DNA of 64,000 bases from Bythopirellula sp. (GTDB lineage Bacteria > Planctomycetota > Planctomycetia > Pirellulales > Lacipirellulaceae), in assembly GCA_028285205.1 (NCBI GenBank), contig JANQQA010000294.1, positions 2,021 to 66,020 of the forward strand. Direction: 5' to 3'. The first letter of the stretch is position 1. Every line of letters begins with the position of its first letter. The position numbers and the translations under genes were made by a program. The notes below the pieces were generated by a model. That model was given only the letters and a program-made list of their open reading frames with translations. It was not told the DNA's origin and made no database searches. Shown here piece by piece: positions 4,194 to 63,422 of the stretch.

Positions 4194-4611
4194 AATCACC
4201 CCCGCAGAACTCGACTCTTGGCAGAAACTGTGTGATGCGGCGACACCGTTGGACGACGCGACAATTGCTAGATACGACCACGGCGGCGGTCGCGTTTACG
4301 TTGGCGAACTGTCCGGCGAACGTGAGCTAATCATGGACCTCTACGGTGATGGAAGCGACCGCGAGTTCTATATCAATTCCCGCACTGCCATGCCCCGACT
4401 GATTGCTGAAGTACGGCGGCTACGCGAGAAACGCGACCAGCAACGAAACAACGCCGACAGTTTAGTTCAGGCAATCAACCGCAGCGGGTACGACCTATCG
4501 CCATGTACGGGTTGTGGCGTGATGCAAGTTGTTCTTTCGGGTGAACGGGTGAGATGTGGGGGCTGTGCTGAGAAGCAAATGGGGAGCGAGGAGCAATCTA
4601 ATGCCGAGTGA
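4186..4611 (+). CDS. Hypothetical protein with C-terminal zinc ribbon
   Basis: 141 aa with CTGCG..CGGC near the C-terminus. Confidence 0.75.
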   Translation: MNEITPAELDSWQKLCDAATPLDDATIARYDHGGGRVYVGELSGERELIMDLYGDGSDREFYINSRTAMPRLIAEVRRLREKRDQQRNNADSLVQAINRSGYDLSPCTGCGVMQVVLSGERVRCGGCAEKQMGSEEQSNAE

Positions 4612-5095
4612 AGCCAGATGCCCACTAACAGGGCGAAAGTTGTGTCCTAAGTGCAACACCGCCGAGGGTGTTCACGGGGGTTGTGTTTGTGGTCACCTCG
4701 CCGCAAAAGGATTAGAGCCAATGCCGAGCAACCGACCGAAAGACGTGCAGGGTGCGATTAGCTGGTTTGCCGGTCAGGAGACAGTTCCAGAAGTCTACAA
4801 GTCAAACGTAATTCATGGACGCTCGCTTTGTCGCTACGCGCAATTTCTGGAAGCCAACTTGCGAGACAGCGATATTGTCCTCGGCGAAGGCTGGGAGAAG
4901 TCAGTGCGGAAAGTGCAGGGAGAAATCGACGTTGATGACACGCTGCACACCCAGTGTCTCTCGCTGTCAGCAGGGAACGCTGAGTTGAAAGACGAGAACG
5001 AACGGCTGAGGGTGGCACTGAAGGATGCTATTCGCCGCCCACTGGGTGTCGTTCCGGCATCGGCAGAGGAATTTTGTAGGGAGTCGCAGTTATGA
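4601..5095 (+). CDS. Hypothetical protein (N-terminal CxxC..C.C)
   Basis: Internal ATG of ORF 4556..5095 (MPSEARCPLTGRKLCPKCN..). Confidence 0.7.
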   Translation: MPSEARCPLTGRKLCPKCNTAEGVHGGCVCGHLAAKGLEPMPSNRPKDVQGAISWFAGQETVPEVYKSNVIHGRSLCRYAQFLEANLRDSDIVLGEGWEKSVRKVQGEIDVDDTLHTQCLSLSAGNAELKDENERLRVALKDAIRRPLGVVPASAEEFCRESQL

Positions 5096-5610
5096 CCGCA
5101 ACTGAAATCACCCGCGAGCAGATCGAGACGGCAGAGGGCGAGGAGTTGAATCGGTTTTGTGAATTGCTGGTTTTTGGGGATGACCTGACGGCAAGGACTA
5201 GCTCAAACAATCCGCGCCTGATGGATGCGGTCAACAACAGCCGGTCCTGGGATAACTCCGATGTGGATGACATTTTAATAGCGATGCGAGTAAACGAACC
5301 GTCGAGCGTGGCACTCTGGCGACTTCGCGGGAATCGTCGTTATCGAGAACAACTAGAAAGGGACGTAGCCAACTGGCGAGCCAAGCCCCGCGACTTCGTC
5401 GGCGATGGGAATGCGGAGCGGGAGTTGAAGGCAGAGTTGCGAGAACGATTCGGTGGACTGTCCTATCAATACATTGAAGGCAAGCCGGGCAGTTATCACG
5501 AATACGATGTCGGCGCGTTTGTATCTAAGGGGTGTGGAGTTGGCGCGGACGAGCCAACAGCCCTCTGCCGAGCAGCGTGTCTCGCGTGCCTTGAGCAGAG
5601 AAAGGGGTAG
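5092..5610 (+). CDS. Hypothetical protein
   Basis: 172-aa ORF with an ATGA overlap to the upstream gene. Confidence 0.75.
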   Translation: MTATEITREQIETAEGEELNRFCELLVFGDDLTARTSSNNPRLMDAVNNSRSWDNSDVDDILIAMRVNEPSSVALWRLRGNRRYREQLERDVANWRAKPRDFVGDGNAERELKAELRERFGGLSYQYIEGKPGSYHEYDVGAFVSKGCGVGADEPTALCRAACLACLEQRKG

Positions 5611-24300: not shown

Positions 24301-27128
24301 TCCGACTGCTTCGGCGGAACTTCAGTTGGCTCGCGCAGCAGCCACTCTTTGAACTGCTCGGTCGGCAAAGCTTGCGAAGCGGCTTCTGCTGCGTCGGCAT
24401 TCGAGTCAATCCCAGCGATCAGCATGTCCTCATACAGCGTGTCCATGCCCTTGAATTCGTCCACGCCATGATTCTTCATCGCATTAATGACACCACCGTA
24501 CTTCTTGCGAACCTCACGTTGTTCCGGAGTAAACTCGTTGTCCGCCATCGCCTTCATTTCGTCGTGGACGTCGTTGACCATCAGTTGCAATTCGACCGGG
24601 TCAATTCCTTCCGTGACTGCGCGCTTCAGGACTTTCGGAAGTGGTTGGGCCAGTTGGTTTGCTGCCTTGCTGACAAGCCGTCCCGTCTGGTCGTATTGCG
24701 GAGACGCAGCGGTTTCGTCAATCTCCCCAATCCGCTTCGGCGTCAAGTGATCAACGATGGCATCGGCCACAATATCTTTCCGCTTGGCTGACATGCCGGT
24801 GAGACCATACTCGCGAGCCAGCTTGTACAACTCACCGCGATCCATCTTCATCAGGCGTGCTTTTTCAGCCTGCGGGTCGAACACCGTCTGAGGCCCTTCA
24901 TACGGCAGTTCCACCCCAGCAGTGGACGGCGGCCGCTCTGTTACTCCAGCGGCCGCAGCAGGCATTTGCGGGCCTGTAACGGACGGCTGGGCGAATGTCT
25001 CGCCTTGTGCCCCCTGAATCGCCTGTGCGGTCTCTGGTGGCCCCTGTTGGGCTTGTGGGACCGCTCCTGATGTCCCGGTGTCCCGAACAGGCTCAACCGG
25101 GAATTGCGGCAAGCCAACGCGGTCATCTCCCGGTTGCACCCCCATCTTCCGCTGCAGGTCATCATTGAACTGGTACATGACGCCAGTGACGAATTTCGTG
25201 GCGTCTCGCACGACCCGTTCCCGGTGCAATGAACTGCCCACATTCGCCCGGTCCAGTCCGAGAATTCTGGTAAACGACTTACGAGAACCATCACTCATAG
25301 CCAATCGCAGCGCTTGCTTCGCTGTAAATGGCGTCCCGTCTGGCATGGCCAAGAGCCGCGATGCCACAACCGCACCCCGGTCTTGAACCGCATCACTGCC
25401 TGACAAGCCAGCCGCAACCTGGGTTACAGGCAGTGCACCAAACGCACCCGCCTGAATCAACAACTCTTCAATTGCCTTGGTTCTCTCTTTCTGGTTGCCG
25501 GTAAACAGTTTCTCAACGGGGCCAAAGTCTTCTTCGAGTCCGGTCGCCTTCCGCAGTGCGGCTCCAAGTTGTTCCTCACCTAACTCGGTGACAACATCAT
25601 TCAGACCACCCGCCGCGAGAACCTTCTTGGCGTACTGGGCTTCAGTGCGCCCTGCCACCTTGCCAAGCCACGCATTCTTCAGTTCAGACTGAACAGCGCG
25701 AACAACGGGGATTCGATTCAGTAGGTTTGCAGCAGGAGCGCTCACTCCAGCACCAGCCGATTCGGAAAACGCTTCGATTTGTGCGTCAACATATCCATGC
25801 AGCGCAGCTTGCTCGAAACTTTCGCCAGGATCGGCTACCACCAAGTCAGTCTGGTTGTCTACTGTTGCCGGAGACAGCGTCGGAATCATTCGCCGGGTTG
25901 CACCACTCACAAACTGAGTCGGGACAGCCATTCGTTGCGCACCGGCGAACGACTTGCCAAGCGCAGCGCCGCCCACTTTGGCTGCTTCTTTGAATGCTCC
26001 CTGAGTCGCCGCCTTCATCGCTGTTGCTGTTGCCGGGGCTGCTCCGCCTGTTGCGCCCATTTCAAACATGAACCCCGGCATCTGGAACGCTGTGTCGATG
26101 ATGCCAGTCAGGATGCGTTCGCCCGACGACTTGTCCTCACCGGCAAGCATCTGAGAACGAACAAGATGGCGGGCGTATCGTGCATAGTCCCTGCCAGTTG
26201 GCTCGACATCCGGGTCCATGATCGCAATCGCCGCATCACGAATCTGCTTGTTCTCCTCCGCTGCAAACAGGTGACGAGCCACTGGAATGTACCGCATCGG
26301 AGTATCGTTAATTGACGGCACGTAGTTTTTCTCTAACTTGCGCACCCATTCCGCCAACGTCCGCGCCCGTTCTGTCGCCTTGCTCTCTGCTGGAGTGTCT
26401 GCGCCTGTGCCGAGAATCGTATCGAGGTAATCCAGGTAGTCGCTGCCAGCAGGGCGATCTTGCTGTTCACCACCCATGCTCAACTGAATGCGACGGTCCT
26501 TTTCCTCTTGGAAACGTGCGGCACTCAACGGCTTCCATGCCTCGCGCGCTTTCTTGAATACGTCGGGCGTCCATTGCAGCGGGTCCGCACCATGCGTGTT
26601 CAGAATCGCCTCAATCGAGTCAGCGTGAAACATGGATGTATTGAACTGAGCATCACCCTGAACCTGCCCCTCACGCCGAAATACTGGAGCGTTCGTGCCG
26701 TCTCGGCCCCAGTCTGCGTACTTGTTGGCAATTCGGTCGATTTCACCAAATACATCGGCATATTGTTCTTGAGACAATGCCTCCTGTGGTCGTGGTCCAA
26801 CCATCGGTGACGCACCATATGCAGCCTCATTCGGTGCAGTCGAGACCCACTGTCGCGGTGTCTCCGGCATCACACCGGGGCCGAAGTCATTTACGGGTCC
26901 GCGAGGTGCCGTGGTGGACGGCATCGGCGGCATGATGCCAGGTTCTGACTGCTCGAAGCGGTTCAGTTCCTGCAACGGAACCGGTGGCTCGCTCACCTCT
27001 ATCGGTGGCTGGAACATCCCGTTCGACCCGAACATCTCATCGTACAGGTTGCCGAAAGAGCCGGTGCCACTTGTTGCAACCCCGGCCCCGAACAGTTCGT
27101 TGTAAATCTGGGAGTATTGCCCCATCAC
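21387..27128 (-). CDS. Giant (1913 aa) internal virion/ejection-like protein
   Basis: Last and largest gene of the virion operon, after two low-complexity proteins, in the position of T7 gp16-type proteins. Gly/Ala-rich segment ATGGAAPATATAMKAATQGAF. Confidence 0.9.
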   Translation of the reverse strand: MMGQYSQIYNELFGAGVATSGTGSFGNLYDEMFGSNGMFQPPIEVSEPPVPLQELNRFEQSEPGIMPPMPSTTAPRGPVNDFGPGVMPETPRQWVSTAPNEAAYGASPMVGPRPQEALSQEQYADVFGEIDRIANKYADWGRDGTNAPVFRREGQVQGDAQFNTSMFHADSIEAILNTHGADPLQWTPDVFKKAREAWKPLSAARFQEEKDRRIQLSMGGEQQDRPAGSDYLDYLDTILGTGADTPAESKATERARTLAEWVRKLEKNYVPSINDTPMRYIPVARHLFAAEENKQIRDAAIAIMDPDVEPTGRDYARYARHLVRSQMLAGEDKSSGERILTGIIDTAFQMPGFMFEMGATGGAAPATATAMKAATQGAFKEAAKVGGAALGKSFAGAQRMAVPTQFVSGATRRMIPTLSPATVDNQTDLVVADPGESFEQAALHGYVDAQIEAFSESAGAGVSAPAANLLNRIPVVRAVQSELKNAWLGKVAGRTEAQYAKKVLAAGGLNDVVTELGEEQLGAALRKATGLEEDFGPVEKLFTGNQKERTKAIEELLIQAGAFGALPVTQVAAGLSGSDAVQDRGAVVASRLLAMPDGTPFTAKQALRLAMSDGSRKSFTRILGLDRANVGSSLHRERVVRDATKFVTGVMYQFNDDLQRKMGVQPGDDRVGLPQFPVEPVRDTGTSGAVPQAQQGPPETAQAIQGAQGETFAQPSVTGPQMPAAAAGVTERPPSTAGVELPYEGPQTVFDPQAEKARLMKMDRGELYKLAREYGLTGMSAKRKDIVADAIVDHLTPKRIGEIDETAASPQYDQTGRLVSKAANQLAQPLPKVLKRAVTEGIDPVELQLMVNDVHDEMKAMADNEFTPEQREVRKKYGGVINAMKNHGVDEFKGMDTLYEDMLIAGIDSNADAAEAASQALPTEQFKEWLLREPTEVPPKQSDRVIDQAVERMLVSANAADESTEFPFGGGFGPDSIGAAQTRTGSLGDNEKDVLTSLQVMGVGRPDLQNPGTSSMSRAMIDEMDEDRKREFIAQSHQQWRDEAEKRLTTDMAAEEARLLERHANLEEMGGAEEKIAQQLVDRAMQQAFEPDTLNEADIARAKALHEAHRATRSDLARRLGSARDPVETPKDRAKRIISDALLSGSEGHRGAVDAANDRLKEARNEGNTKEIEAATSELEKLRKQWEDAFVTLKDRLEKSGYDLSQIDTIAEDPVRAQKLMNDIETLTEGKLGNMAYEYWRNSILSAVTTTGADIAGSGGFGAYVLFAERAAESLINKVGKQSDAATLSEFKDIVSGIGPGLRNGLKNALNAWRTEQPQLQHQLGEEVTGKFGSLRKYIPGKVGRAVRMLGYTRLMLVDEFTQTLVANMEVGAQARRLAIGRGIKSGTKEMNAAIQDMVEDTESEAWQKALEVARRVTFQQRGAPTTRKLKEAARAKQKVPGGRWILPFTETPLNIIETGLATSPLGIFNLASKWQQARKTGNYKGITKRSAQQLLAWSGLMLLMLLNDDDDPWITGAKGEKQYDSVRSRVAPPQSIKLGDQWYSYSRIEPFATGLSLTIDIMNALKSGSPRRMVSDPLESSYRILSNKSYLKGLGDIAKIGEYGVIEGGAKWASNFSASWVPNIVRHGVKNTTDTLPERRVWGQADSEFLRVAAKRAAQKTEIPQLFGVLQDVPKYDVWGETLKRNTSPVPMTDFVFRMVAPTQTKTAEPFIGDRVLMRWNMLHPDDEKNPSLPAKFFTVNGKKKHLSEDEYGEYLRLSGQIAKKRLLLLNLNADRPTERDVKLIEDTLSASRKLAKQHVLAGKTDIDTGEAAAELHKTTIGKELYSASGPGSTENSEKQAMKSADFVKSLDLKPDDAVKQLEQHMLSDLNERRRKKGAKSDLKKMPFGVRKYKTTVDTYKERRKRLLERIQ

Positions 27129-41863: not shown

Positions 41864-43744
41864 TTACACATAGTCCCGCCAGTACGATGGCTGATCCGCC
41901 ATCTTCCGCAATTGCTCCCTCTGATTCCGCCGCCACTGAAACGAACCCAGCTTCGCCTCTTCCGGCCTCTCCTCCGGCTTCGGGGCCGGAATGTCCTCAA
42001 CGCCAAACCACGCCAGCGCACACGCAATCGCCGAGTCACCGTGCCCCTTGCCCTTTGACCCGTCGTCCGACGTTCCCTGCTCGGCCGCGTGAACCAGAAT
42101 ACCACCCTTGAAGAAGTATTGCCCGCACTCCGTCACGATGCGACCGGACTTGATGACGCACTTGTCCATCGCAATCGCCTGCTCTAGGTTGGACAGCACC
42201 TTTTCGCCCTTGTCTTGATTCTGGTATCCCGGCTTGTTGGTTTTTTTTCTGAAGTCACTGTGGCCCGATTCGCGGTAGTACAGATTCGGATAGCTGGCGC
42301 GCAGCACTTCGCGAATAAACTCCGTCCCACCACCCCCGGCATTCACTTCGGGAACCATGTAGGCGTGATGAAACCACTTCCCCATCGCAACAGCCAGTTT
42401 GGCGAACTCCCACGGCTTGATTTTGTTGCTACTGAACTCAGCCACTTGATGCCCCGTGTTTTTGTCGATCACCACAATCGCCGAGTAGGCCGAACCCGTG
42501 CCGCGTGAAATATCAACCCCCATCGAGTAGTGACCTTCCGGTACAAGCAGCGCGCCTTCACTGTTGACGAGGCTGCACCACAACTCCACGTTCCCGGAAG
42601 CGTGCTTCATAAAGTACGGCTCTAACGTGTCTTCGTCGTATTGAAGTTTTCCCCTGATAACCGGGTCTTCTGTCAGACCTTTCGCCTTTTGCAGAATGTC
42701 GCCGCTGAACAGCCGGGACGTGGCACCACCGAAATCCTTGTCCAGTTCCGCTGCGATGGAAGCGGGGGATGAGTTTGGACGGCGGCACTCGAAGTCGTAA
42801 TACGGCGACCGCATCTTGCCGTCGAGAATGAACTTGTAGGCGTAAGGATGCTTGTACTTGGGGTCCAGTTTTTCCAGTTTGCCATCGTGAGACGTGTAAA
42901 GCCCTGCCGCCTTTTCCGCATCGTCCTTCCAGTCGATGTCGATTAACAACCGGTCTTTCGTGTCGTCCATTACCGCATCGTAGAACGCACCGGACTGGCC
43001 ACGTTTCTTATTCGGGGTGGAGACGTAGACGCGGGAGCGGGTGACGTGTTGCACAGAATCCATCACTTCCACGTCTTTGCCGACCGGGAAGGAATGCAGT
43101 TCGTCCATGAACCACCACAATTTTCTTCCTCCACGGCCCATGTTTCCGCCGGTCGCAAAGCCGGAGATCGTCGAACCGTTCCGCGCATTGACGATTACAT
43201 GCGTCTTCGTGCGGTGATACCAGTCCACCCCTTCCGTCCCCCGCATCCACAACGGCAAACGGTTGATGATGAACTTGATCTTGGAGAACAGCGAGTCGGG
43301 GTTTTCGGGATCGTCTACGGAGTTCTCATCTTTCGACGACATGCCGATGTGCGTCTGGTCGTGGAATCGCCAGTCCCACTCAGCCAGAGCAATGAACATC
43401 CAAGTTGCGCCAGTTTCGCGAGATTTGAGCACGCAGATGTCGCGCTTGCCCAAGTCCTTGACGGCCCGCATGACGACGCGGTCTTGATAATCGCGAGTCA
43501 GAAACGGAATCTCTTTGGCTGTCTCGCCCCACTTCGTATCCTGCTGCCAAGTGGCTGCGTCTCTCGGTTCCAGCAACCAGTGCATGAGGTTGAAGTAGTA
43601 GAGCGGGTCGCGCGAGCAGGCGATCCACACCTCTTGCCGGTACTCTTCGTCGTAAACGCAGCGTTCGAGAACGTGCTTGCGCCATGCGACGTGAGCAGCA
43701 GGGTTCTTTGGGCAGTAGCGTTTGTAGAATTCGTTAGTCGCCAA
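41864..43744 (-). CDS. terL: Terminase large subunit
   Basis: 626 aa with the ATPase region VLKSRETGATWMFIALAE and a C-terminal nuclease-size domain. TTG start. Confidence 0.85.
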   Translation of the reverse strand: MATNEFYKRYCPKNPAAHVAWRKHVLERCVYDEEYRQEVWIACSRDPLYYFNLMHWLLEPRDAATWQQDTKWGETAKEIPFLTRDYQDRVVMRAVKDLGKRDICVLKSRETGATWMFIALAEWDWRFHDQTHIGMSSKDENSVDDPENPDSLFSKIKFIINRLPLWMRGTEGVDWYHRTKTHVIVNARNGSTISGFATGGNMGRGGRKLWWFMDELHSFPVGKDVEVMDSVQHVTRSRVYVSTPNKKRGQSGAFYDAVMDDTKDRLLIDIDWKDDAEKAAGLYTSHDGKLEKLDPKYKHPYAYKFILDGKMRSPYYDFECRRPNSSPASIAAELDKDFGGATSRLFSGDILQKAKGLTEDPVIRGKLQYDEDTLEPYFMKHASGNVELWCSLVNSEGALLVPEGHYSMGVDISRGTGSAYSAIVVIDKNTGHQVAEFSSNKIKPWEFAKLAVAMGKWFHHAYMVPEVNAGGGGTEFIREVLRASYPNLYYRESGHSDFRKKTNKPGYQNQDKGEKVLSNLEQAIAMDKCVIKSGRIVTECGQYFFKGGILVHAAEQGTSDDGSKGKGHGDSAIACALAWFGVEDIPAPKPEERPEEAKLGSFQWRRNQREQLRKMADQPSYWRDYV

Positions 43745-45854: not shown

Positions 45855-46514
45855 ATGAACAATTGCGTCATCTACGCCCGCTACAGCCCGCGACCGGAAG
45901 ACTGCGACTCCATCGAAGTTCAAGAGTCGTTGGCGATGGCTCGCTGTGAGCGGGTGAACCTTCGCCCGGTCGCCCTGTTCTTCGACGAGAACACGTCAGC
46001 ACGCAAAGTCAAACTGCGAGACCGAAGCGGCGGGAGCCAGATGCTGGCGTACATTCGAGAGAACGGCATCCAGCACATCGTCACCAAGTCGCTCGACCGT
46101 ATGTTTCGCAACACAATCGACGGCTTGACCCAACTGGAAGAATGGGCCGAACAGAGCGTAATGCTCCACGATGCAGCACGAGGGGTTTCCGTGGACGTGG
46201 AGAACCCAGATAATGAATTCATCGTGACCATCCTGCTCGGCGTGTCTCAGGCTGAGGCCAAGCGCACGGCACGTCGCACCAGTGAGGCGATGCAGCACTA
46301 CCAGAAGCAGGGGCGGCGAATGTCTCGCTACCCTGATTTCTGGTCAACAGAACGCGGCCAGTCTCTCGCACCAACGGTTCGCCAGTGGAAGCAGGACGAA
46401 GCGTTGAGCTATCGGGGGATTGCTGAGAGATTGAATGAGCAGGGTTATGATCCACCGAACGGGAAGGGTTGGTATCACGGGATTATTGGGAAGTTGTTTC
46501 AGGAGACGGTATGA
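45855..46514 (+). CDS. Small serine recombinase (resolvase/invertase family)
   Basis: VIYARYSP (catalytic Ser context), SLDRMFRN, and a C-terminal HTH-like SYRGIAERLNEQG. Confidence 0.85.
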   Translation: MNNCVIYARYSPRPEDCDSIEVQESLAMARCERVNLRPVALFFDENTSARKVKLRDRSGGSQMLAYIRENGIQHIVTKSLDRMFRNTIDGLTQLEEWAEQSVMLHDAARGVSVDVENPDNEFIVTILLGVSQAEAKRTARRTSEAMQHYQKQGRRMSRYPDFWSTERGQSLAPTVRQWKQDEALSYRGIAERLNEQGYDPPNGKGWYHGIIGKLFQETV

Positions 46515-46518
46515 GAGA

Positions 46519-46956
46519 ATGGAATTCAAAGTAGTCGAAGCTCACGAGATTGTCTCCCAGTGCCTGCGATACATGGTCCGGTATCCGGTTCAGGAATGCG
46601 TTTTCCCTCGGCCCGGCAAGCCACATCCGGTTGGTATTCCTGATGGCTGTTTGGTTGTGTTTCTTGATATCAGTCACATGGACAACCCGGACGTTCCAGA
46701 TGATTTTTGCAAGCGGGCTGGTGGTGCAAAACGATCGCATAGCAGTGCCCGTTTCTTGGTTGACATCAATAAACTGCGTGATGCGGTTTTGCATGATGGG
46801 ATGCGATTTGTTCTGGATGAATTAGGCGAAGCGGTAGAACATGCCCTTGACAGAATTGAGTTTGCCGACCCTGAAACCGGGCGTGTCGATTATCCCGATG
46901 ACTTCACGGTTTTCAAGTATTACGTTCCGAATGTTGAATCAGAGGAATCGGCATGA
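46519..46956 (+). CDS. Hypothetical protein
   Basis: Internal ATG of ORF 46435..46956 (MEFKVVEAHEIV..). Confidence 0.7.
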   Translation: MEFKVVEAHEIVSQCLRYMVRYPVQECVFPRPGKPHPVGIPDGCLVVFLDISHMDNPDVPDDFCKRAGGAKRSHSSARFLVDINKLRDAVLHDGMRFVLDELGEAVEHALDRIEFADPETGRVDYPDDFTVFKYYVPNVESEESA

Positions 46957-47288
46957 GCGTTGAACTGGACCGCAAGGTGGCGGAAGCGATTGGGGTTGAG
47001 GGTGAATCCGGCCCGCTGATGAAAGTCACGGACGACAACGGAAACATCACGAAATTCATACGTGGCTTCGCGGACGGCCGGAACGTCTCGATGTTTCACC
47101 CAAGCAAAGACCTAAACGATGCGTTCTGGGCAGCGGAGCAAGTCAGCGACTTCATCCACGTCTCCAAGAATGAAGCAAGCAATGGTAGATATGAATCATC
47201 GCTACAACCGAATGTCTGGGGCATTCTTGCTGACACTCCGGCACTGGCCCTATGCAACGCCATCATCGCATTAAAGGAGCAGGCATGA
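46953..47288 (+). CDS. Hypothetical protein
   Basis: 111 aa with an ATGA overlap. Confidence 0.75.
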   Translation: MSVELDRKVAEAIGVEGESGPLMKVTDDNGNITKFIRGFADGRNVSMFHPSKDLNDAFWAAEQVSDFIHVSKNEASNGRYESSLQPNVWGILADTPALALCNAIIALKEQA

Positions 47289-48592
47289 AATATCTATTTA
47301 TCGGTGGACCACGGGATGGAGAACGGTTTGAGATTGAGGGGGCGGCCCCGTATCGGATTGGCGAGTACAGATTGATAGCTCAACTCGTGCTGGGCGACAA
47401 AGCGTACGGTCACACAGCAATGAGCTATATGGAATTAATCGCCCAACTGATTGAGCGGTATCCCGAACCGGAGAAGCCGGACGCATACAAGGTTACTGGA
47501 CCGTCGCCACTTGATTCCATCGGCACCGAAGAGGAATTGGCCGGCGACCTCGACGCGATTGGCAATTTGGTCGAGCGGTATTCCGGCCCTGAATCGCTTC
47601 AAGACAAAATGGTGGAATGCCACAAAAAACTTCAGGCGTTCCGCGAGGCCCGCAAGCAGGCCATGGAATCGTGTCTGTCAACAGGACCGTACGCCCCGCC
47701 CGACAACCTGTTTACGGCGTCCTGTGGGTGTGTGCTGGACGTGAATGGCTCGTCGGTTCGTTGCGAGAACATTGTTAGTCCGTGCGACTATTTCGGCAGT
47801 CTGCGGCCTTTCGATGGAAGCCGTGCCGTATGGGACCACTACGACGTTGTGTCTGCTGAATGGCGAGCGAGCCAGAAATCCGCAGCAACCCAACTCGTTG
47901 ACATGCTTCGGGAGTCCGGTGCAACCCATTACATCGAGAATGCATCTCTCGGAGCAGACGTAGTGGAACGCCTCGAAGTGGACACGAGCAGTAGCCAAGT
48001 CACCGTGACGCCACCTGCGGGCATGGACGGCTCCCCAATCACGTTTCGTTGCGTACCGTCGAGTGAGGGAGTGAATAAACCGCTCGAAGTCACCGAAATT
48101 CGCGTTGATGAAGCGACCGACGAGGCTGGTGAACCAACATTTCGCCGTGAGGCAGATGAGAACGGTATTCAGTGGATTGCAATGTCGAAGCCACTCAGTC
48201 CGTGGGAGCGGGAGATTCAGCAGGCCGTCAACAAGCGGTCGCAGGAGCACCGCGAGGAAGTGGAAGCCATCGCTGCGAAGTACGACCTTCCGCAGTTGAT
48301 GGATGTGGTGGCGTTCGAGGACGAGACGGTTGCCGATTCCGCCGAACCGAAACCGGACGGTACTTTCGGTGGCGTGCCGATTGTCTGGAAACAGGGGCTG
48401 GGGCCGGATGATGTCGAAGTGCTGCCGCCAATCGCGTCCACGAAGGAATCTGGGAAGGATTCGGAAGTGGAGTTCAACATCCGTGATGAGATTGTGTGCG
48501 ACTTCTCAATCTGCCCAGATTGCAACGGCACCGGCCAAATCGTTCTGTTCAATACGGTGGAACCGTGCAAGACGTGTCAGCCAGCGAATTGA
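47285..48592 (+). CDS. Hypothetical 435-aa protein with C-terminal CxxCxGxG zinc finger
   Basis: ATG 47285 with an ATGA overlap. CPDCNGTGQIV..CKTC at the C-terminus. Confidence 0.8.
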   Translation: MKYLFIGGPRDGERFEIEGAAPYRIGEYRLIAQLVLGDKAYGHTAMSYMELIAQLIERYPEPEKPDAYKVTGPSPLDSIGTEEELAGDLDAIGNLVERYSGPESLQDKMVECHKKLQAFREARKQAMESCLSTGPYAPPDNLFTASCGCVLDVNGSSVRCENIVSPCDYFGSLRPFDGSRAVWDHYDVVSAEWRASQKSAATQLVDMLRESGATHYIENASLGADVVERLEVDTSSSQVTVTPPAGMDGSPITFRCVPSSEGVNKPLEVTEIRVDEATDEAGEPTFRREADENGIQWIAMSKPLSPWEREIQQAVNKRSQEHREEVEAIAAKYDLPQLMDVVAFEDETVADSAEPKPDGTFGGVPIVWKQGLGPDDVEVLPPIASTKESGKDSEVEFNIRDEIVCDFSICPDCNGTGQIVLFNTVEPCKTCQPAN

Positions 48593-48609
48593 GTTACACG
48601 CGGAACCAA
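48590..48609 (+). repeat. Motif copy TGAGTTACACGCGGAACCAA
   Basis: Starts at the stop codon of the upstream gene, 14 nt before ATG 48623. Confidence 0.9.
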
Positions 48610-48622
48610 CGGAGGCAGGGGA

Positions 48623-48940
48623 ATGAGTGAGTACGGAGAACCGTGGGACGTCCAGCAGGATGCCACGTCGAAGGTGTTTCACTTGGGTTGCAAGGACAAC
48701 GAACTAACCAAGGGGTACGGCCTTTTTCTTGACGGGCGTCGTGCAGTAATTCTTTGCAATCGCAATCGCGAACTAATGGACAGGGTCGCAGCCTGCGTCA
48801 ACGCCATGCGATACGTGACCGATCCAGAGAAATTCATGGGGCACATTCGCTCGGCCATCCGAGAGCAGCATTCGATTGGTGGCATTTCGGAGCATATCGC
48901 TAAGGCGACAGAGTGCGGGGACTTCGAGGTTTACACGTGA
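48623..48940 (+). CDS. Hypothetical protein
   Basis: 105-aa ORF with GGAGG upstream. Confidence 0.75.
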   Translation: MSEYGEPWDVQQDATSKVFHLGCKDNELTKGYGLFLDGRRAVILCNRNRELMDRVAACVNAMRYVTDPEKFMGHIRSAIREQHSIGGISEHIAKATECGDFEVYT

Positions 48941-48999
48941 ACCGGACAGCCAGTAAGGGGTTTCCTTACGGTTATTCTTACTGAGTGCGAGGAGGAGAG

Positions 49000-49374
49000 A
49001 TGTTCGGACTGAAAAGGGCCAACTCATATCGCCAGCACATTCTCAAAGAGATTCACGACAAGCACGCGCAGAAGAAATCGCAGGATGCTCGCATTGTTGC
49101 CGACTCCACCGAACTGGCTTCAATCATCGGCCTGTCAGACAGCGACATCAGGCAAATGCACGAACTGCAAGTGCACGTAAACATTCCAGAAACCCCGTGC
49201 TATCTCGCCGCTGACCATCTCGGAGAATGGCAATACGTCCTGCGCCTCGGCTGCGGCCCAATGCATGGCTGGGACTACAAGTCGTATCCTGAGTGGCGTG
49301 AGGAAGCCAAGCGGATTCTGCGGGAAGGCTGGTCTGACCCGCCAAAAATCGGAACCATTGGTTCCGAAAACTGA
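49000..49374 (+). CDS. Hypothetical protein
   Basis: ATG 49000 preceded by GAGGAGGAGAG. Confidence 0.75.
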   Translation: MFGLKRANSYRQHILKEIHDKHAQKKSQDARIVADSTELASIIGLSDSDIRQMHELQVHVNIPETPCYLAADHLGEWQYVLRLGCGPMHGWDYKSYPEWREEAKRILREGWSDPPKIGTIGSEN

Positions 49375-49398
49375 CCTTGAGTACCTCTTGCGGAGAGA

Positions 49399-49680
49399 GT
49401 GAGTATGAGTGAGGGCAAGTATCGCATGGATGTCGTCTATCCGCTTGGCCAATTCGACATCACCGCAATGGATGTAATCATCGAAGACGCAGTTGGAAAA
49501 GAAAGCGAATCCAGTGGCGGAGGCATTGGTGGTCGCGACCTGCAATTCTACTTCGACAGTGAGAATGACCGCACAGTCGCGGCACTCGCTGTTGCGTCAA
49601 TTCAAGACCACCGAATCGACGTTGTTCGACGAACCGACTTGGACCCGCCGCGCGCCCCAGCACTGGAAAATGAAGCGTGA
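49399..49680 (+). CDS. Hypothetical protein
   Basis: 93-aa ORF (GTG 49399 or ATG 49405). Confidence 0.7.
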   Translation: MSMSEGKYRMDVVYPLGQFDITAMDVIIEDAVGKESESSGGGIGGRDLQFYFDSENDRTVAALAVASIQDHRIDVVRRTDLDPPRAPALENEA

Positions 49681-49775
49681 TTTCTGCGCGAAACTGACCT
49701 TGCACCCACCTTTGTAAAAACTACAATCAGCGGTGCACGGTTCAGCCGACAATACATTCGAGCGACTTTCGCTCA

Positions 49776-49820
49776 CCCCGCCTGCTGGACTGTGCAAACC
49801 CACCTTGGCGGGGTTTCTTA
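49776..49820 (+). terminator. Probable terminator of the 45.5-49.7 kb operon
   Basis: CCCCGCC (49776-49782) pairs with GGCGGGG (49807-49813), followed by TTTCTTA. The loop is long (24 nt). Confidence 0.5.
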
Positions 49821-51047
49821 TTGCTACGGAGAACTGATTGAGAGAAAGCTACCACGCAAGGCGTGCGACCCCATGACACCCAGCGACTACATGCCGGTCG
49901 CCCACATCCAGTTCGTTATCGCAAGGCATGTAACGAAGCCCAGTAAGAAGCACAGCCCCCCGCCGGGGAAATTTGAGGCGGGCCGGTAAGAAACGGTAGC
50001 GTCGTGATGATGCAACCTGAACCCTAAACGGGAACCGGATAACAAAATCGACGGCTGAACAACAGCGGACCCTGGGAAACGTGGTAGCGATGGCCAAACG
50101 CGCCGCGCCCGTGGCAATACCTACCCAGTCTCAATCATCAAGCACCCGTCGTGAGGATGCCGTCAGCCACAAAGCTGTCCTGACAGTTGCAGCGACGTTA
50201 AACAACTGCGGGGAAGGCACCTTTGGCGCTCTGGCCTCGTTCAGCACCACAACCCCGCACAAGCGACGTCAGAGCCTCTGAAAACACGTCAGCATTACCC
50301 AGCTTCACAGCAACAAGCGACAAGACACAGCGAACACCACCCATCTACCAAGCAGTCAGGCGGAAATTACCCATTGTGACAGGCGAAATTGAGGCGATTG
50401 GAGGGAGGTTAACTAGGGGTGTCACATCGCGACCGGGGTGGGGTGACGGTCAAGAATCGGGAGTCGCGGAAGCCTGGGGGTCCCACCCGTCGAAATTGCT
50501 CGCAAAACAGCGGTGTGTCGCAACGTGTTGGCATCAATAGCTTTGCGGTGGACGCAAACGTGCGGTTGCATCCATATGACAGCATGAGGCTGTGCGACTG
50601 GGTGCTGATGGCTGCGTGCAGCAGGGCCGGGCGTCGCCTGGCGGATCGGGCATGTGAGTGCACGCGCGGTGAGTTATCCCCCTGCCATCTGTCCACATTT
50701 CGAACAATGTGTTCGATATTGCAACACTTTCCGCTGTGCTGCTCGCTTTGTTGACTCGATTCTGTCTGGTGTATGTGCGCGAAACTACACACGTAGCGCG
50801 CGCGTAGCGCACAGTCCTCATAGGAACTCGCCCTGCTTCCCGCCTGTGTGGCGTTTGGGTGCCGAATACCGCAATCCGGGCGAATCCCGCTGTTCTTGCC
50901 AGATTGGCAGCCCTGAGAGGCCGCAGGAGCGACGATTGGACGCTGGCGTGAGGTGAAGCACGTATGAATTCGGGCCGATTGCCTGCTGTAATGCAAATCG
51001 AGACTACTCGCCTGCTGCCCTGTTGAGAGTCTGCTTGATCCACGCTG

Positions 51048-51278
51048 TCAGGTCTTTGGCGGCACGTCGGCTACCTGCTCCGGCTTGCGACCAGGGCGTC
51101 TCGTAGAGTCTTTGGACCAATCCTGAACAGCGCACAGCGAAACAATCCGACTGCCGTCGCCTAGCTCCACTGTCTCCACCTCTCCGCGAGCTATCGCCAT
51201 TGAGAGAGTCGAGCGATTGACACCTGCTGATCGGGCAGCGCCTGAGATTGATGCGTATTGTGCAGGATCGATTTTCAT
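51048..51278 (-). CDS. HTH DNA-binding protein (repressor/Cro-like)
   Basis: 76 aa with ASISGAARSAGVNRSTLSMAIARGEV as the HTH. A near-consensus promoter sits so close that the mRNA is essentially leaderless. Confidence 0.8.
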   Translation of the reverse strand: MKIDPAQYASISGAARSAGVNRSTLSMAIARGEVETVELGDGSRIVSLCAVQDWSKDSTRRPGRKPEQVADVPPKT

Positions 51279-51284
51279 GCTGAT

Positions 51285-51367
51285 ATTGTAGCGTGGAAAT
51301 TATTTTTGTCAAATCGTCAATTTTTATGTGATTGCCCCTTGCAATTGTTGACGACTTGTCAATAATG
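51285..51367. promoter_or_regulatory. Divergent promoter/operator region
   Basis: Minus strand: TTGACA (51312-51307), 16 nt, TACAAT (51290-51285), then 6 nt to the ATG. Plus strand: TTGCAA (51339-51344), 17 nt, ATAATG (51362-51367). Inverted 15-mers TTGTCAAATCGTCAA (51306-51320) and TTGACGACTTGTCAA (51348-51362). Confidence 0.55.
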
Positions 51368-51429
51368 GTGTGCATGCAAAACAAAACCCGCCACGAACTG
51401 AATCGCAGCGGGCAATGTATTCGAGTGTC

Positions 51430-51523
51430 GGAGGGTTGGCAGAGTGGCCGAATGCAGGTGACTGATAATCACCCAAAGCGTCTCATCAGGGCGTTTTCGC
51501 GGGTTCGAATCCCGCACCCTCCG
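51430..51523 (+). tRNA. Class II tRNA with a Ser-type body and anticodon GAU (Ile)
   Basis: Acceptor GGAGGGT/ACCCTCC and discriminator G73. D stem GCA/TGC with loop GAGTGGCCGAA. Anticodon stem GGTGA/TCACC with loop CTGATAA. A 25-nt variable region. T arm GCGGG-TTCGAAT-CCCGC. CCA is not encoded. Confidence 0.85.
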
Positions 51524-51588
51524 CACTCGTTTAGTTTATCGGCCAGCGTGACTGATTTCAATACCCTTTTGACTGGGAGGGTTGGACA

Positions 51589-55897: not shown

Positions 55898-56308
55898 ATG
55901 GATACTAGTAACAACAACCCGAAAAGCAAACTCAACTCGCTGGTTTCGGCCCTGCTTGTGGGATTTGAAGAACACTTTGACGAGACGGCAGCAACAGAGT
56001 TAGGTCGCGGTTTGGCAACAGCGATTCGCCACTTGCCAGCAGTTATTCAGCAGTACGTTGGCGAGCCAGAAGCGAAAAAACCTAACGTCAATATAGAGGC
56101 ATTGGCAATCTCGTACGCGCTCGAATCAAAGGGCAAACTCAGCATCCCCCAGATCGCCGACCTTATTGACGTCAGCCACACAACACTCTATCGGAAGAAG
56201 GATTTTCGGGTGATTCACGAAATGGTCGTGGCCGAACGAAAACAACAGGCGGTCGAAATTCAATCCGGAATCATCAACAGTGACGGCACTGTGGACGGGG
56301 TGGTTTAG
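55898..56308 (+). CDS. HTH DNA-binding protein
   Basis: ATG 55898 within ORF 55835..56308. LSIPQIADLIDVSHTTLYRKK is an HTH. Confidence 0.7.
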   Translation: MDTSNNNPKSKLNSLVSALLVGFEEHFDETAATELGRGLATAIRHLPAVIQQYVGEPEAKKPNVNIEALAISYALESKGKLSIPQIADLIDVSHTTLYRKKDFRVIHEMVVAERKQQAVEIQSGIINSDGTVDGVV

Positions 56309-56309
56309 C

Positions 56310-56599
<290 letters not shown>

Positions 56600-56617
56600 T
56601 GCTTGAGGGGGCAGGTG

Positions 56618-57784
56618 ATGGCGGATTCTAACAAACCAAAGAAGCCATATCCAGAGTTCCCCTTGTTCCCCCACGCGACCAAGCGGTGGGCCAAGAAGAT
56701 ACGGGGCAAGCTGCACTATTTCGGTCCATGGCGTGATCCTGATGGTGCCTTGGAAAAATACCTGCAACAGAAGGATGCACTCCACGCTGGCCGCACGCCG
56801 CGATCCGTCGATGGTCTGTCACTGTTGGACCTTTGCAATAATTTCCTCACAGCCAAGATGTCGCTGCTGGACTCTGGCGAACTCTCGGCGCAAATGTTTG
56901 CCCGCTACTTCCGCGCTTGCGAAAGAGTGCAGGCCCGATTTGGTAAGAACAGGTTTGTGGACGATATCACCATCGTTGAGTTTAATGAGCTTCGCTCCAT
57001 CTTGACAAAGGACAAGAGTCCCGTCACTGTGCGCAATGATGTGCGGGACATTCGGTCGATTTTTAAGTATGCCCACGATGCCGGGCTTATTGATGAGCCG
57101 GTGAGGATGGGGCCGAATTTCAAGCAGCCATCCAAGTCTGTACTTCGCAAGGAGCGGACACGCCATGGGCCTCGCATGTTTGAACCCTCGGAACTGCTCG
57201 CCATCCTCGAAGCGGCCAATCCTGCGATGAAAGCCATGGTTTTACTGGGTGTCAATTGTGGGTATGGAAACACGGACGTTGCGAGCCTGCCGCAATCAGC
57301 GATCGTAGACGGCTGGGTGGACTTCCCCCGCCCCAAGACGGGAGTTGGTCGGCGATGTCCATTGTGGGACGAAACATCCAAAGCCATCAGCGAAGCAATA
57401 GCGATCCGCCCCAAGCCAAAGAATAAGGCCGACGAGAACTTGTGTTTTGTGACCATTCAAGGGAACCGCTGGACGCGAGTGTCGCCAGGCAAAAAAGACC
57501 CAACGAAATTCAGTAAGGTCGATTCGGTGGGGCAGCGGTTTGGGAAACTGCTGAAATCTCTCGACATCAATGGAAGGCATCGGCTCGGATTCTACTCGCT
57601 ACGCCGCTGCTTCGAGACGATTGCGGGAGAATCGACCGACCAAGTCGCCGTCGATGCCATCATGGGCCACGCAGACCAATCCATGGCAGCCGTGTATCGC
57701 GAAAAGATCAGCGACCAGCGATTTCAGAACGTCGTCAACGTCGTTCATCGCTGGCTTTTTCAATCTGTGCACGCACAGATTTGA
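56618..57784 (+). CDS. int: Tyrosine integrase
   Basis: C-terminal HRLGFYSLRRCFET..IMGHADQSMAAVY (H-x-x-R .. H .. Y). ATG 56618 within ORF 56603..57784. Confidence 0.9.
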   Translation: MADSNKPKKPYPEFPLFPHATKRWAKKIRGKLHYFGPWRDPDGALEKYLQQKDALHAGRTPRSVDGLSLLDLCNNFLTAKMSLLDSGELSAQMFARYFRACERVQARFGKNRFVDDITIVEFNELRSILTKDKSPVTVRNDVRDIRSIFKYAHDAGLIDEPVRMGPNFKQPSKSVLRKERTRHGPRMFEPSELLAILEAANPAMKAMVLLGVNCGYGNTDVASLPQSAIVDGWVDFPRPKTGVGRRCPLWDETSKAISEAIAIRPKPKNKADENLCFVTIQGNRWTRVSPGKKDPTKFSKVDSVGQRFGKLLKSLDINGRHRLGFYSLRRCFETIAGESTDQVAVDAIMGHADQSMAAVYREKISDQRFQNVVNVVHRWLFQSVHAQI

Positions 57785-58582: not shown

Positions 58583-58639
58583 CCCGGCAGCGGCACACAC
58601 GGCGATTCGAGTTCGCCAGCCGGGCTTTCTGACAACAAT
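58583..58639 (+). ncRNA. tRNA-like minihelix A plus TTCTGACAACAAT box
   Basis: CCCGGC..GGCGA-TTCGAGT-TCGCC-A-GCCGGG, then CTTTCTGACAACAAT. It starts right after a stop codon. Confidence 0.5.
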
Positions 58640-58738
58640 CAATTCAGCGGTTCTCAATCAACCGTGCAAGCGAAGGGGGTAACAAAATGAACCACGGGGG
58701 CGAACGCTGATTGAGGGCGGGTCGTGCCCGGCACACAT

Positions 58739-58824
58739 GGTCTCCGAAGCACTTTCGGCAGTTGCGCTGCGTAGCTACATCAAACGGACAAGCAGAGGAC
58801 TGGGTTCGATTCCCAGCGGAGACC
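58739..58824 (+). ncRNA. tRNA-like element C (8-bp acceptor + canonical T arm, non-canonical core)
   Basis: GGTCTCCG (58739-58746) pairs with CGGAGACC (58817-58824). T arm CTGGG-TTCGATT-CCCAG abuts the 3' strand. No D or anticodon arm can be drawn in the 53-nt core. Confidence 0.5.
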
Positions 58825-59059
58825 CTTTCAATGAAAATGTGGCGTGTGAGTATCGGCAACTCACTGTAACGCGGGGACGCAAACGCCGTTGGGAGCGGGA
58901 AACGGATGCTACTGAGAAGTTGTAACCCAGTGGAGTGGCAAGACCACCGAAGATTGTTTGAGTCAATCTCTCGTGCAACACCCTAACCAAGTACGACACC
59001 CCGACAAAGGAAAGTTGATAACTAAACCTGCCTTGCGAGTAACAAGGAACTCGATGGTA

Positions 59060-59126
59060 AGCAATCCAGGTGGGCGGCACGTGACGCTGCGGTTCGAGTC
59101 CGCAAATTGCTTCTTCTGACAACAAT
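59060..59126 (+). ncRNA. tRNA-like minihelix B plus TTCTGACAACAAT box
   Basis: AGCAAT..GCGGCAC..TGCGG-TTCGAGT-CCGCA-A-ATTGCT, then TCTTCTGACAACAAT. A diverged copy of element A. Confidence 0.5.
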
Positions 59127-59201
59127 TCTCTGTCACCCCCACTTTGGGCGAAAGAGGTTCGCCCACCGAGACGCTACCGTTGCGCACTGAGGCTTCCGGA
59201 T

Positions 59202-62528: not shown

Positions 62529-63422
62529 ATGACTGATCTGTTTGAACAGCAGAAAGACGATGTCGTGATTGATGCTGAGATCGATCATCCCGAAGTCGGG
62601 ACCACTGAGATTGCGACTCGCGAAACGTCGTACCCAACTCTGTCGGCCAATGCGCTGATCCAGCGGGCGATTGATAGCGGGCTTCAAGTCGATTCGCTGA
62701 AAGAACTGCTGGCGATGCGGCGGGAACTGAAAGCGGAAGAGGCTCGCGAACAGTTCTTCGATGCTCTTGCGAAGTTTCAGGACGAGTGCCCGCCCATTGA
62801 GAAACAGAAGAAAGCGGACAAATACCATTACGCTCCGTTCGACCACATTGTCTCGGTGATTAAACCGCACCTGAAGGAGAACGGATTCAGTTACACATTC
62901 GACGCCGAGTACCTTGAGGTTGGGAACCAGCAGGTACAGCGGGTGACGTGCCACCTGCACCATCGGGCGGGACACACTGAATCGTCGGTGTTCTCGGCAC
63001 CAGGGGCGGGCACGCGAGCGATGAACGTGACGCAAATTGCGGCATCGGCATTGACCTACGGAAAGAGGTACGCACTGTGCAGCGTCTTGGGATTAACGGT
63101 CGGCAACGACACGGACGGTTACGTTCCGCCTGAACAGAACGGAACGCCAGATCGTGACGCCAACGCTTCGACGGCACCGGCCCGCGATGAGCCGGAACCG
63201 GAAGTGTCCGCAATCGAAGCAAACAACCTGTATCACGACTGGAAGACTTACCGCGAACAGTCGGGGTTGGACCAAAGCGATGAAGCATGGTTTGAGTGGT
63301 TTATAGAAGCAACTGGGATGCCACCAAATATCGCGAAGAACAGAAATCTATGGTCCGCGAGCGACTACCGCAAAGCATGCTCCGCCTTTGACAACATGGC
63401 CCCAGGTTTGAGGCAGCAATGA
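62529..63422 (+). CDS. ERF-family single-strand annealing protein
   Basis: KADKYHYAPFDHIVSVIKPHLKENGFSYTF..TYGKRYALCSVLGL matches the ERF pattern. Confidence 0.8.
   Translation: MTDLFEQQKDDVVIDAEIDHPEVGTTEIATRETSYPTLSANALIQRAIDSGLQVDSLKELLAMRRELKAEEAREQFFDALAKFQDECPPIEKQKKADKYHYAPFDHIVSVIKPHLKENGFSYTFDAEYLEVGNQQVQRVTCHLHHRAGHTESSVFSAPGAGTRAMNVTQIAASALTYGKRYALCSVLGLTVGNDTDGYVPPEQNGTPDRDANASTAPARDEPEPEVSAIEANNLYHDWKTYREQSGLDQSDEAWFEWFIEATGMPPNIAKNRNLWSASDYRKACSAFDNMAPGLRQQ

Follow-up and report, generated by a model that had tools for sequence, protein, structure and literature searches.

A conserved non-coding locus of about 1.2 kb in a phage stretch from Bythopirellula sp. and its candidate role in termination and insulation

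A gap of about 1.2 kb without genes (positions 49821-51047) was studied in a 64,000-nucleotide stretch of DNA from Bythopirellula sp. (contig JANQQA010000294.1), which is almost entirely phage and is referred to below as the window. The gap is true non-coding DNA and not a run of unannotated genes, and gaps of ~0.75-1.3 kb, uncalled or low in coding signal, are a trait of the phage family to which the window belongs. It is a real conserved non-coding locus of a novel temperate phage, most likely composed of ordinary phage regulatory and termination architecture together with one new mobile cis-element, named here block A. The function that we tentatively prefer, while regarding it as somewhat more doubtful than probable, is that of a composite terminator, insulator and leader region between converging transcription units, with back-to-back tracts resembling Rho-loading sites.

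Non-coding status and borders of the gap

Coding potential was evaluated with a six-frame dicodon model trained on the genes of the phage itself. Scores were ~0 in the six frames across the gap, versus +25 to +40 in the flanking genes, and the period-3 signal was 1.97 (shuffles: mean 1.79, 95th percentile 2.89; coding stretches of equal length: 6-17). No Pfam or PHROG family was recognised in the two long minus-strand open reading frames (ORFs) or in the other stop-free stretches of the gap. A phmmer search with the joined stop-free stretches (minimum 60-77 aa) in 1.84 billion representative proteins gave only a self hit, the copy of ORF 50419-50754 made by the gene-caller. Stop-codon recoding was not supported, every frame of the gap having mixed stop types and none scoring as coding. 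These results bear out the original prediction, made from the letters alone, that the stretch is ORF-free and that its two long minus-strand ORFs are not protein-like; the GC-richness that it reported was also found (0.57-0.60, or 0.56-0.60 in the origin test, versus roughly 0.49-0.58 in neighbouring windows). Decayed genes or pseudogenes, one of its proposals, found no support, the gap having no period-3 signal, no protein relatives and no translated similarity, tblastx giving no support for similarity to the genes of relatives. A decayed or intact tRNA array was ruled out by ARAGORN and Rfam scans: relaxed ARAGORN yielded only implausible intron-containing calls in the gap, and no Rfam tRNA match was obtained in the gaps of the relatives L114, L115 and L119 (L-numbers designate the fetched loci or contigs compared with the window, each with its own coordinates). 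No DNA similarity of the window to deposited phages and plasmids was detected.

The genome is not otherwise gap-free, as had been stated: a second non-coding stretch, of ~620 nt, was found at 58584-59201. It holds a 'tRNA-Cys(ACA)' (58740-58825, 86 nt), called by ARAGORN only and not confirmed by Rfam, and a T-arm-like GCGGTTCGAGTCCGC near 59083.

The gap is bounded by the 3' end of a rightward operon (45855-49680) and by a leftward helix-turn-helix (HTH) ORF (51278-51048), which is divergent from the early promoter region. Its left border is occupied by a terminator cluster with a minimum free energy of -53.7 kcal/mol and z = -4.56 (0/200 shuffles equally stable); read on the minus strand, z was -3.32. 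The hairpin 49775-49814 followed by UUUCUUAUU qualifies as an intrinsic terminator, placed at the border and not inside the gap, in agreement with the terminator originally noted there. Within 49824-51047 no intrinsic terminator was predicted on either strand, and on the minus strand none was predicted downstream of the HTH ORF before 49775. The GGGGTTTCT...ACGGAG tail of the cluster recurs in L023 and, more loosely, in L004. A 20-nt direct repeat, CAGCSGRCAATRYATTCGAG, 80% identical, is located at 49743-49762, in the terminator cluster, and at 51406-51425, just upstream of the tRNA-Ile gene. The HTH ORF gave weak HTH matches only, which is what remains of its description as repressor-like: the repressor role is unproven, no relatives were found by word search, and the other matches were 39-41%, partial and non-syntenic.

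The gap showed neither an RNA family nor an excess of structure. The Rfam 15 library, which includes GOLLD, ROOL, HEARO and OLE, returned only tRNA in the whole window at the gathering threshold; at E<=10 over 49600-51400, the scan that had been suggested for GOLLD and ROOL gave only a sub-threshold match to a microRNA model, located in the candidate operator region (51291-51377), and nothing in the gap. No large-RNA match was obtained at the gathering threshold in the loci of seven relatives. Folding energies on both strands, compared with dinucleotide shuffles, gave z from -1.2 to +1.4 in 160-nt windows and from -1.17 to +1.28 in 500-nt windows, like coding controls, and the equivalent gaps of five relatives fold like shuffles except for their terminators.

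The six stems named in the original prediction all exist within one base of their coordinates, with an enrichment that is only marginal: 8 perfect stems of at least 7 bp are present versus 2.9 +/- 1.7 in shuffles (coding controls 2-7), and stems counted from 5 bp upwards show no enrichment (49 versus 45). Its repeated boxes and half sites are also present, namely AAWTTGAGGCG at 49970 and 50386 (2 versus 0.09 in shuffles) and GGGTGTCA/TGACACCC at 50417 and 49874 (8 half sites versus 2.3), counts that refer to motifs selected after seeing the sequence. The palindrome at 50700-50716 could be a protein site or a hairpin; L088 has a similar CGCAA-TGTG-TTGCG, and a CAATGTGTT centre is common to both palindromes.

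Conserved blocks and strand composition

A terminase search yielded relatives that form a phage family of roughly 62-74 kb. The closest, L004, is syntenic and shows 61% terminase identity. Its order comprises the resolvase, small genes, the operon end, a terminator with a similar GGGG..TCTTTCT tail and then a gap (4227-5269; the same in L005) of ~1.0 kb without robust gene calls, beyond which opposite-strand T5orf172 and 57-aa regulator genes are followed by divergent promoters. L114, L115 and L119 each carry one outsized uncalled gap in the same neighbourhood, with coding-potential checks less clean in L114 and L119, and non-coding stretches are also present in L088, L017 and L023 (Table 1). 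Because relatives carry the gap in the same neighbourhood, the locus is a family trait: a whole family of uncultured ~70 kb phages keeps a ~1 kb non-coding locus, several of them with extreme C/G-skew junctions.

Single-sequence nhmmer of the gap against 87 loci found nothing, and two conserved blocks, A and B, were seen only by Smith-Waterman alignment measured against dinucleotide shuffles (31 +/- 3.4, maximum 46; opposite-strand controls 23-35). For block A, the window at 50023-50341 scored 90 against L088 1296-962, and at 50078-50316 it scored 82 against L023 4939-4700; L023 against L088 scored 105 (opposite-orientation controls 23-31). Block B scored 67 against L004, with 64% identity (opposite orientation 26). 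The blocks align at 64-67% identity in carriers whose terminase proteins are 41-61% identical, and the only coding DNA of the window alignable by blastn with L004 is 159 nt of the resolvase gene (69%). The conservation is at nucleotide level, because tblastx matches over the blocks switch frame and strand. A third block is common to L004 and L017 only. Constraint of some kind on the gap is supported, since two blocks align and relatives carry the gap in the same position; judged from these alignments, the gap is a mosaic of separately conserved non-coding blocks.

The core of block A consists of GGTRGCGAYG, the hairpin GCTGGGTAATATCAACCCAGC (decayed in the window) and CGTCGTGAGGA-N(25-41)-CGACGYTAAACAACT(C)GCGGGG. 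This last pattern was scanned in three collections, and true copies were told from chance by extended similarity; most matches in genomes and metagenomes were chance ones inside coding regions, ~30 being expected for 20 specified bases in 596 Gb. Five distinct versions were recognised: the window; L023, identical to L089 and L111; L088; L090/L110; and L098/L104, of which L104 is binned in a Planctomycetaceae metagenome-assembled genome. A single copy is present in the window, as in each contig stretch examined, and searching the 1.2 Mb of fetched loci with a profile hidden Markov model added none. The window copy is the lowest in the nhmmer profile (97.9 bits versus 113-142 for the others), its first hairpin is decayed and two invariant strings have single-base deletions; because no gene follows on its strand before the tRNA at 51430, this copy is probably decaying.

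The orientation of block A always matches that of the flanking genes. Neither L104 nor L110 has a protein in common with the window, nor do the two have one in common, their only protein matches being spurious translations across block A itself; the four other block A contigs share no proteins mutually, except for the terminase family in one or two. No shared protein partner of block A was found among these contigs. We read block A, of ~160-320 nt, as a new, mobile cis-element absent from Rfam, that is, a non-coding module moving between phage-like contigs with no common proteins or with at most the terminase family; it is presumably read by a host factor, since no phage protein travels with it.

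Other identities of the core were rejected. A micro-ORF (RREE...RR*) has its frame in three copies and is broken in L088 and the window; a K-turn (CGUCGU-GAG-GA...GA-ACGACG) has an unconserved inner helix and no second GA in the window; and the tmRNA-tag-like 'GCG AAC GAC GCU' was regarded as a coincidence, with no tmRNA found by ARAGORN or Rfam and an unconserved frame.

Block B is rich in G-tracts and conserves no reading frame. The strings that it has in common with L004 are GGTTAAC, GGGGTGGGGT, GAATC-GGGAG, the hairpin CGCAA..TTGCG and CGTGCGGTTGC, and its patterns gave no matches in viral contigs. Consensus folding was weak: RNAalifold of block A (5 sequences) gave -12.9 kcal/mol and 22 pairs, nearly all invariant, with 3 'compensatory' pairs, all in poorly aligned columns, and the fold of block B (2 sequences) reached -34 versus -17 for its two strands, with 8 compensatory pairs on each strand and hence without strand preference. 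The alignment with relatives and covariation analysis originally recommended thus recovered conserved blocks, and the covariation, from few homologues, was unconvincing.

Strand composition flips at about 50350-50450, where a C-rich, G-poor tract (50251-50350) gives way to the G-tract block (50351-50480). Both tracts fall within the 0.5% composition tails of the window, and the sharpest C/G-skew jump of the 64 kb is found at ~50373 (46, 4.2 sd, rank first). The junction is symmetrical, in that each strand read 5' to 3' reaches a C-rich, G-poor tract first. Folding z for the C-rich tracts was +0.5 and +1.2 on the plus strand (windows from 50240 and 50320) and, on the minus strand, +1.4 at 50320 and -1.0 at 50400. 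A large inverted repeat centred on the junction was not significant (score 34 versus a shuffle maximum of 39). In L004 the two top skew junctions lie in the gap, at 4739 and 4416; in L017 the top three lie within the non-coding region, and in L115 the top one is at the gap edge. Canonical G-quadruplex (G4) motifs occur in or at the edge of the gaps of these same three relatives; in the window G4Hunter gave 1.26, with no canonical motif.

Additionally, L017 carries at 5060-5240 and 5360-5545 a dense G-tract array, with (GGGAGAGGGC)x3 and many canonical G-quadruplex motifs, which adjoins a long C/T-rich block and gives the strongest skew junctions of that locus.

Candidate functions of the gap

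In the composite reading that we tentatively prefer, the intrinsic terminator (49775-49823) would stop most rightward transcription. Read-through RNA would cross block A and turn C-rich, G-poor and unstructured at 50251-50350, and the leftward HTH transcript, which has no intrinsic terminator, would turn C-rich and G-poor at 50480-50351. The two back-to-back tracts could then serve as Rho-loading sites of the rut type, forming a bidirectional backstop terminator that would shield the accessory operon and the regulatory and early region from each other. In this reading, block A would be a mobile leader element acting in cis, recognised by a host factor and inherited via mosaic recombination. 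Sites of the rut type are C-rich, G-poor and unstructured RNA; both strands, read as transcripts, contain a C-rich, G-poor run of the expected length (about 80 nt or more), with little secondary structure in the loading region. Leaky intrinsic terminators backed by downstream Rho-dependent termination at 3' untranslated regions (UTRs) are described in a preprint (bioRxiv 10.1101/2022.07.21.500918). If true, this reading would make the gap an ordinary piece of phage architecture: a spacer at a module boundary that combines terminator, insulator and leader.

Several points weigh against it. The flanks of the gap are co-directional, not convergent, in L023, L088, L114 and L115, so a convergent-terminator role cannot be the family-wide function, and the gaps of L023 and L114 have no marked skew junction. 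The C-over-G excess is strong over only about 100-130 nt per strand, which leaves the 1.2 kb length unexplained, and the skewed tracts account for only roughly one fifth of the gap. Alignable blocks of 250 nt are not what terminators normally conserve, and a block identity of 64-67% at 41-61% terminase identity would exceed what is usual for simple terminators. The composition flip could just record the direction of transcription, because phage coding strands are generally A-rich. The decay of block A is deduced from five sequences, and transcription of the gap on either strand and the use of Rho by the host are presumed here.

The main and most interesting rival, rather unlikely in our estimation, is a transcription-primed R-loop origin of replication, in which a transcript over the G-tract block (50351-50640, plus strand) would hybridise persistently with the C-rich template and be processed to a primer; precedents of transcription-primed replication are ColE1 RNA II, the T4 R-loop origins and mitochondrial CSBII. 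Among those window proteins that were scanned, none was recognised as a replication initiator, primase or polymerase, a ~1 kb non-coding locus recurs across the phage family, and in L110 block A is placed directly upstream of a Prim-Pol gene. The G block is present and belongs to block B, which is G-tract-rich and conserved with the nearest relative, and in the loci of L004, L017 and L115 the gap or its edge is where G4Hunter peaks highest and where the canonical G4 motifs are found; however, no promoter was predicted upstream of it or elsewhere inside the gap, and the G4 signal of the window itself is weak (1.26, no canonical motif). Non-coding, RNA-based origins have been reported for prophages of cluster A mycobacteriophages (PMC7157519), but the window encodes an integrase, so that a plasmid-type prophage origin is unneeded. 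Neither did the gap show the marks of the classical replication origin suggested in the original prediction: iterons, tandem repeats and repeat families beyond chance-size pairs are absent, DnaA-box-like 9-mers are at chance level, there is no AT-rich unwinding element, the gap being the GC-rich part of the region, and the cumulative skews turn at ~20.8 kb and ~45.5 kb, with transcription direction, and not in the gap. If true, an RNA-primed origin would account for the replication of these phages in spite of their having no recognisable initiator.

A broader proposal, which we judge unlikely, is that these little-known ~70 kb temperate phages keep a specialised ~1 kb non-coding locus in which C- and G-tract blocks alternate and which acts by strand asymmetry, with block A as a new cis-element that binds a host factor and hops among unrelated phages; R-loop or G-quadruplex formation at this locus may prime phage replication or switch transcription. 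The family in question has an SU10-type portal and adaptor, and Planctomycetota are possible hosts.

It also seems improbable that the gap is evolutionary debris of deleted or scrambled genes and leaders, left by mosaic recombination at a module boundary and with no function of its own. The window does look recombinant, an L023/L088-like block A being joined at ~50320-50364 to an L004-like block B; its block A is the most degenerate of the five, with no downstream gene on its strand; and the right 400 nt of the gap (50630-51047) match nothing. However, no residual period-3 signal, coding score, translated similarity or protein relatives remain, a gap of similar size is kept in every relative examined with enough flank, in genomes otherwise tightly packed, and the blocks are conserved as well as the best coding DNA, the resolvase match (69% over 159 nt) being the only comparable blastn result.

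It is quite doubtful that the gap yields a long non-coding RNA or an extended 3' UTR, weakly structured, that acts in trans or as a sponge. The candidates would be a ~1.2 kb tail of the HTH transcript in lysogens, for which a strong promoter and the lack of an intrinsic terminator for ~1.3 kb can be adduced, or an A/C-rich plus-strand RNA. Blocks conserved with no conserved reading frame, a block A orientation constant relative to neighbour genes, the marginal enrichment of perfect short stems and the conserved block B hairpin CGCAA..TTGCG, with one compensatory change, would fit such an RNA; the lack of an Rfam family, folding z-scores of ~0, an essentially absent covariation in block A and the sharing of blocks with different relatives, a patchwork unlike one co-evolving RNA gene, would not.

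One large ornate structured RNA, whether of the GOLLD/ROOL/HEARO/OLE class or a new one, was the leading idea of the original prediction and is largely refuted and highly improbable: despite an ORF-free, GC-rich phage setting of ~1.2 kb with a tRNA gene near and 8 perfect stems of at least 7 bp versus 2.9 expected, there is no covariance-model match (E<=10 in the gap; gathering threshold in seven relatives), folding in the window equals that of shuffles and of coding controls for either strand and at either scale, and in five relatives that of shuffles, the alignable blocks have weak consensus folds, and homology to relatives is patchy and not end-to-end. The nearby tRNA, taken as a hint of such an RNA, does not count as evidence for one, and ORF-free, GC-rich, stem-rich DNA near a tRNA is, as a caution, no evidence for a giant RNA.

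Phage setting and comparison with known systems

Besides the proteins listed in Table 1, a major head protein is encoded in the window. Orphans are the majority of its genes: among 5.8 billion proteins the 446-aa neighbour protein of the gap had no relative except itself, and no relatives were found for the neighbouring protein of 129 aa. L003 is 100% identical to the window. Transcription direction is tracked by purine and GC skews across the window, the structural genes being read leftward between about 45.7 kb and 21.4 kb, the accessory unit rightward at 45855-49680 and the main early unit rightward from about 51.4 kb. The structural module ends with a 1913-aa ORF (21387-27128, minus strand) that has no Pfam match.

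A 30-nt imperfect inverted repeat with abundant TTGTCAA/TTGACAA, at 51291-51377, separates the HTH ORF from the tRNA and early genes, and the promoter of the HTH ORF lies within this region, which looks like the operator region of a genetic switch because the repeat overlaps divergent promoter-like sites. The tRNA-Ile(GAU) gene (51430-51524, plus strand) is 95 nt long, with a 23-nt variable-region insertion and a type-II-like shape that is unusual for an Ile anticodon. Similarly long tRNA-like genes were found in relatives: 'Pro(CGG)' in L017 (19159-19255, 97 nt) and, at a relaxed threshold only, 'Ser(CGA)' in L004 (5694-5785). The latter and a fragment of L023 (~5330-5390), both just upstream of the gap, contain the T-arm motifs GGTTCGAGTCC / GTTCGAATCC; the Rfam tRNA model detected neither of these two fragments.

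Two near-identical 18-nt palindromes, GGGTGTCA(C/G)TGACACCAC, at 56308-56325 and 56580-56597, together with direct TGACACC repeats at 56529 and 56541, bracket 300 nt upstream of the tyrosine integrase. These are likely operator, arm-type or att-associated sites, and single half sites of the palindromes are found at 49874, 50418 and 51218, inside the gap or close to it.

L114, L115, L023 and L017 are independent contigs of ~69-74 kb with the terminase on the reverse strand, starting 10.6-15 kb from the contig end, and the L115 contig ends just past the integrase gene. That relatives' contigs end beside the integrase suggests that their assemblies are interrupted at the attachment site and not in the gap. 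With only 22-30% identity to T4-type and other terminases, the terminase of the window does not allow the packaging mode to be inferred.

Table 1. Features of the window and of the compared loci (coordinates of L-numbered loci are their own)
Feature	Locus	Position	Strand	Basis or remarks
Non-coding gap	Window	49821-51047	.	No coding signal, protein relatives, RNA family or excess structure
Terminator cluster	Window	49694-49823	+	Hairpins 49694-49745, 49760-49774, 49775-49814, then UUUCUUAUU
Block A, extended	Window	50023-50341	+	Smith-Waterman homology to L088 and L023
Block A core	Window	50073-50232	+	Pattern scans, alignment, nhmmer
C-rich, G-poor, A-rich tract	Window	50251-50350	+	C 38, G 16, A 36, T 10 per 100 nt
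G-tract block, C-rich/G-poor on minus strand	Window	50351-50480	-	Plus-strand G 40-41, C 17-22 per 100 nt
Block B	Window	50364-50630	+	Homologous to L004 4702-4447, syntenic position
Perfect 7-bp palindrome	Window	50700-50716	.	TCGAACA-ATG-TGTTCGA; single occurrence within chance expectation
76-aa HTH ORF	Window	51048-51278	-	MerR/excisionase-like helix-turn-helix; reads into gap
Sigma-70-type promoter of HTH ORF	Window	51285-51312	-	Promoter prediction; TTGACA-16-TACAAT, 11/12
Terminase large subunit	Window	41864-43744	-	Protein family scan
Serine recombinase	Window	45855-46514		Protein family scan
Tyrosine integrase	Window	56603-57784		Protein family scan
Erf-type annealing protein	Window	62529-63422		Protein family scan
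Uncalled gap	L114	7396-8437		1042 nt
Uncalled gap	L115	3865-5195		1331 nt
Uncalled gap	L119	4227-5565		1339 nt
Non-coding stretch	L088			About 1 kb
Non-coding stretch	L017			About 1.1 kb
Non-coding stretch	L023			About 0.75 kb
Block A context	L110			Integrase, A, Prim-Pol and RusA
Block A context	L104			AbiEi/HTH_17 regulators, A, 252-aa ORF, HNH, terminase
Block A context	L023			Operon terminator, A, 104-aa ORF
Block A context	L088			Terminator, C-rich non-coding DNA with A, promoter-like site (by eye), gene

Among known systems, the gap resembles the GOLLD and ROOL prophage RNAs in size class, phage location and the proximity of a tRNA gene, and differs from them in having no covariance-model match, thermodynamic signal or covariation. 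With RNA-primed origins it has in common a non-coding locus of ~0.5-1 kb in a phage without recognisable initiator and a strongly G-skewed block, which would favour RNA-DNA hybrids; the window differs in having an integrase, no parABS, no promoter predicted in the gap, no skew turning point and no sequence similarity.

Block A recalls the lambda nut boxA/boxB together with the tR1 rut site, being short, fixed in orientation, found in leader positions and followed by a C-rich tract, with a host factor as likely reader in the absence of an accompanying phage protein. Its core UUAAACAA looks similar to the rrn/lambda boxA, UUUAACAA. Unlike the lambda system, the window has no identified N-like or Q-like protein, no boxB-like hairpin is common to all five copies, and the window copy follows a terminator and precedes no gene.

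Finally, bidirectional Rho-dependent terminators and 3' UTR backstops differ from the gap in the co-directional flanks of several relatives, in the small share of the gap taken by the tracts and in a Rho role that is here presumed. On the other hand, the gap, like them, separates converging units and follows an intrinsic terminator that looks leaky. A C>G tract of about 100-130 nt, whose folding does not exceed that of shuffles, is encountered on each strand read 5' to 3', and the sharpest skew junction in the window is where these two tracts meet.

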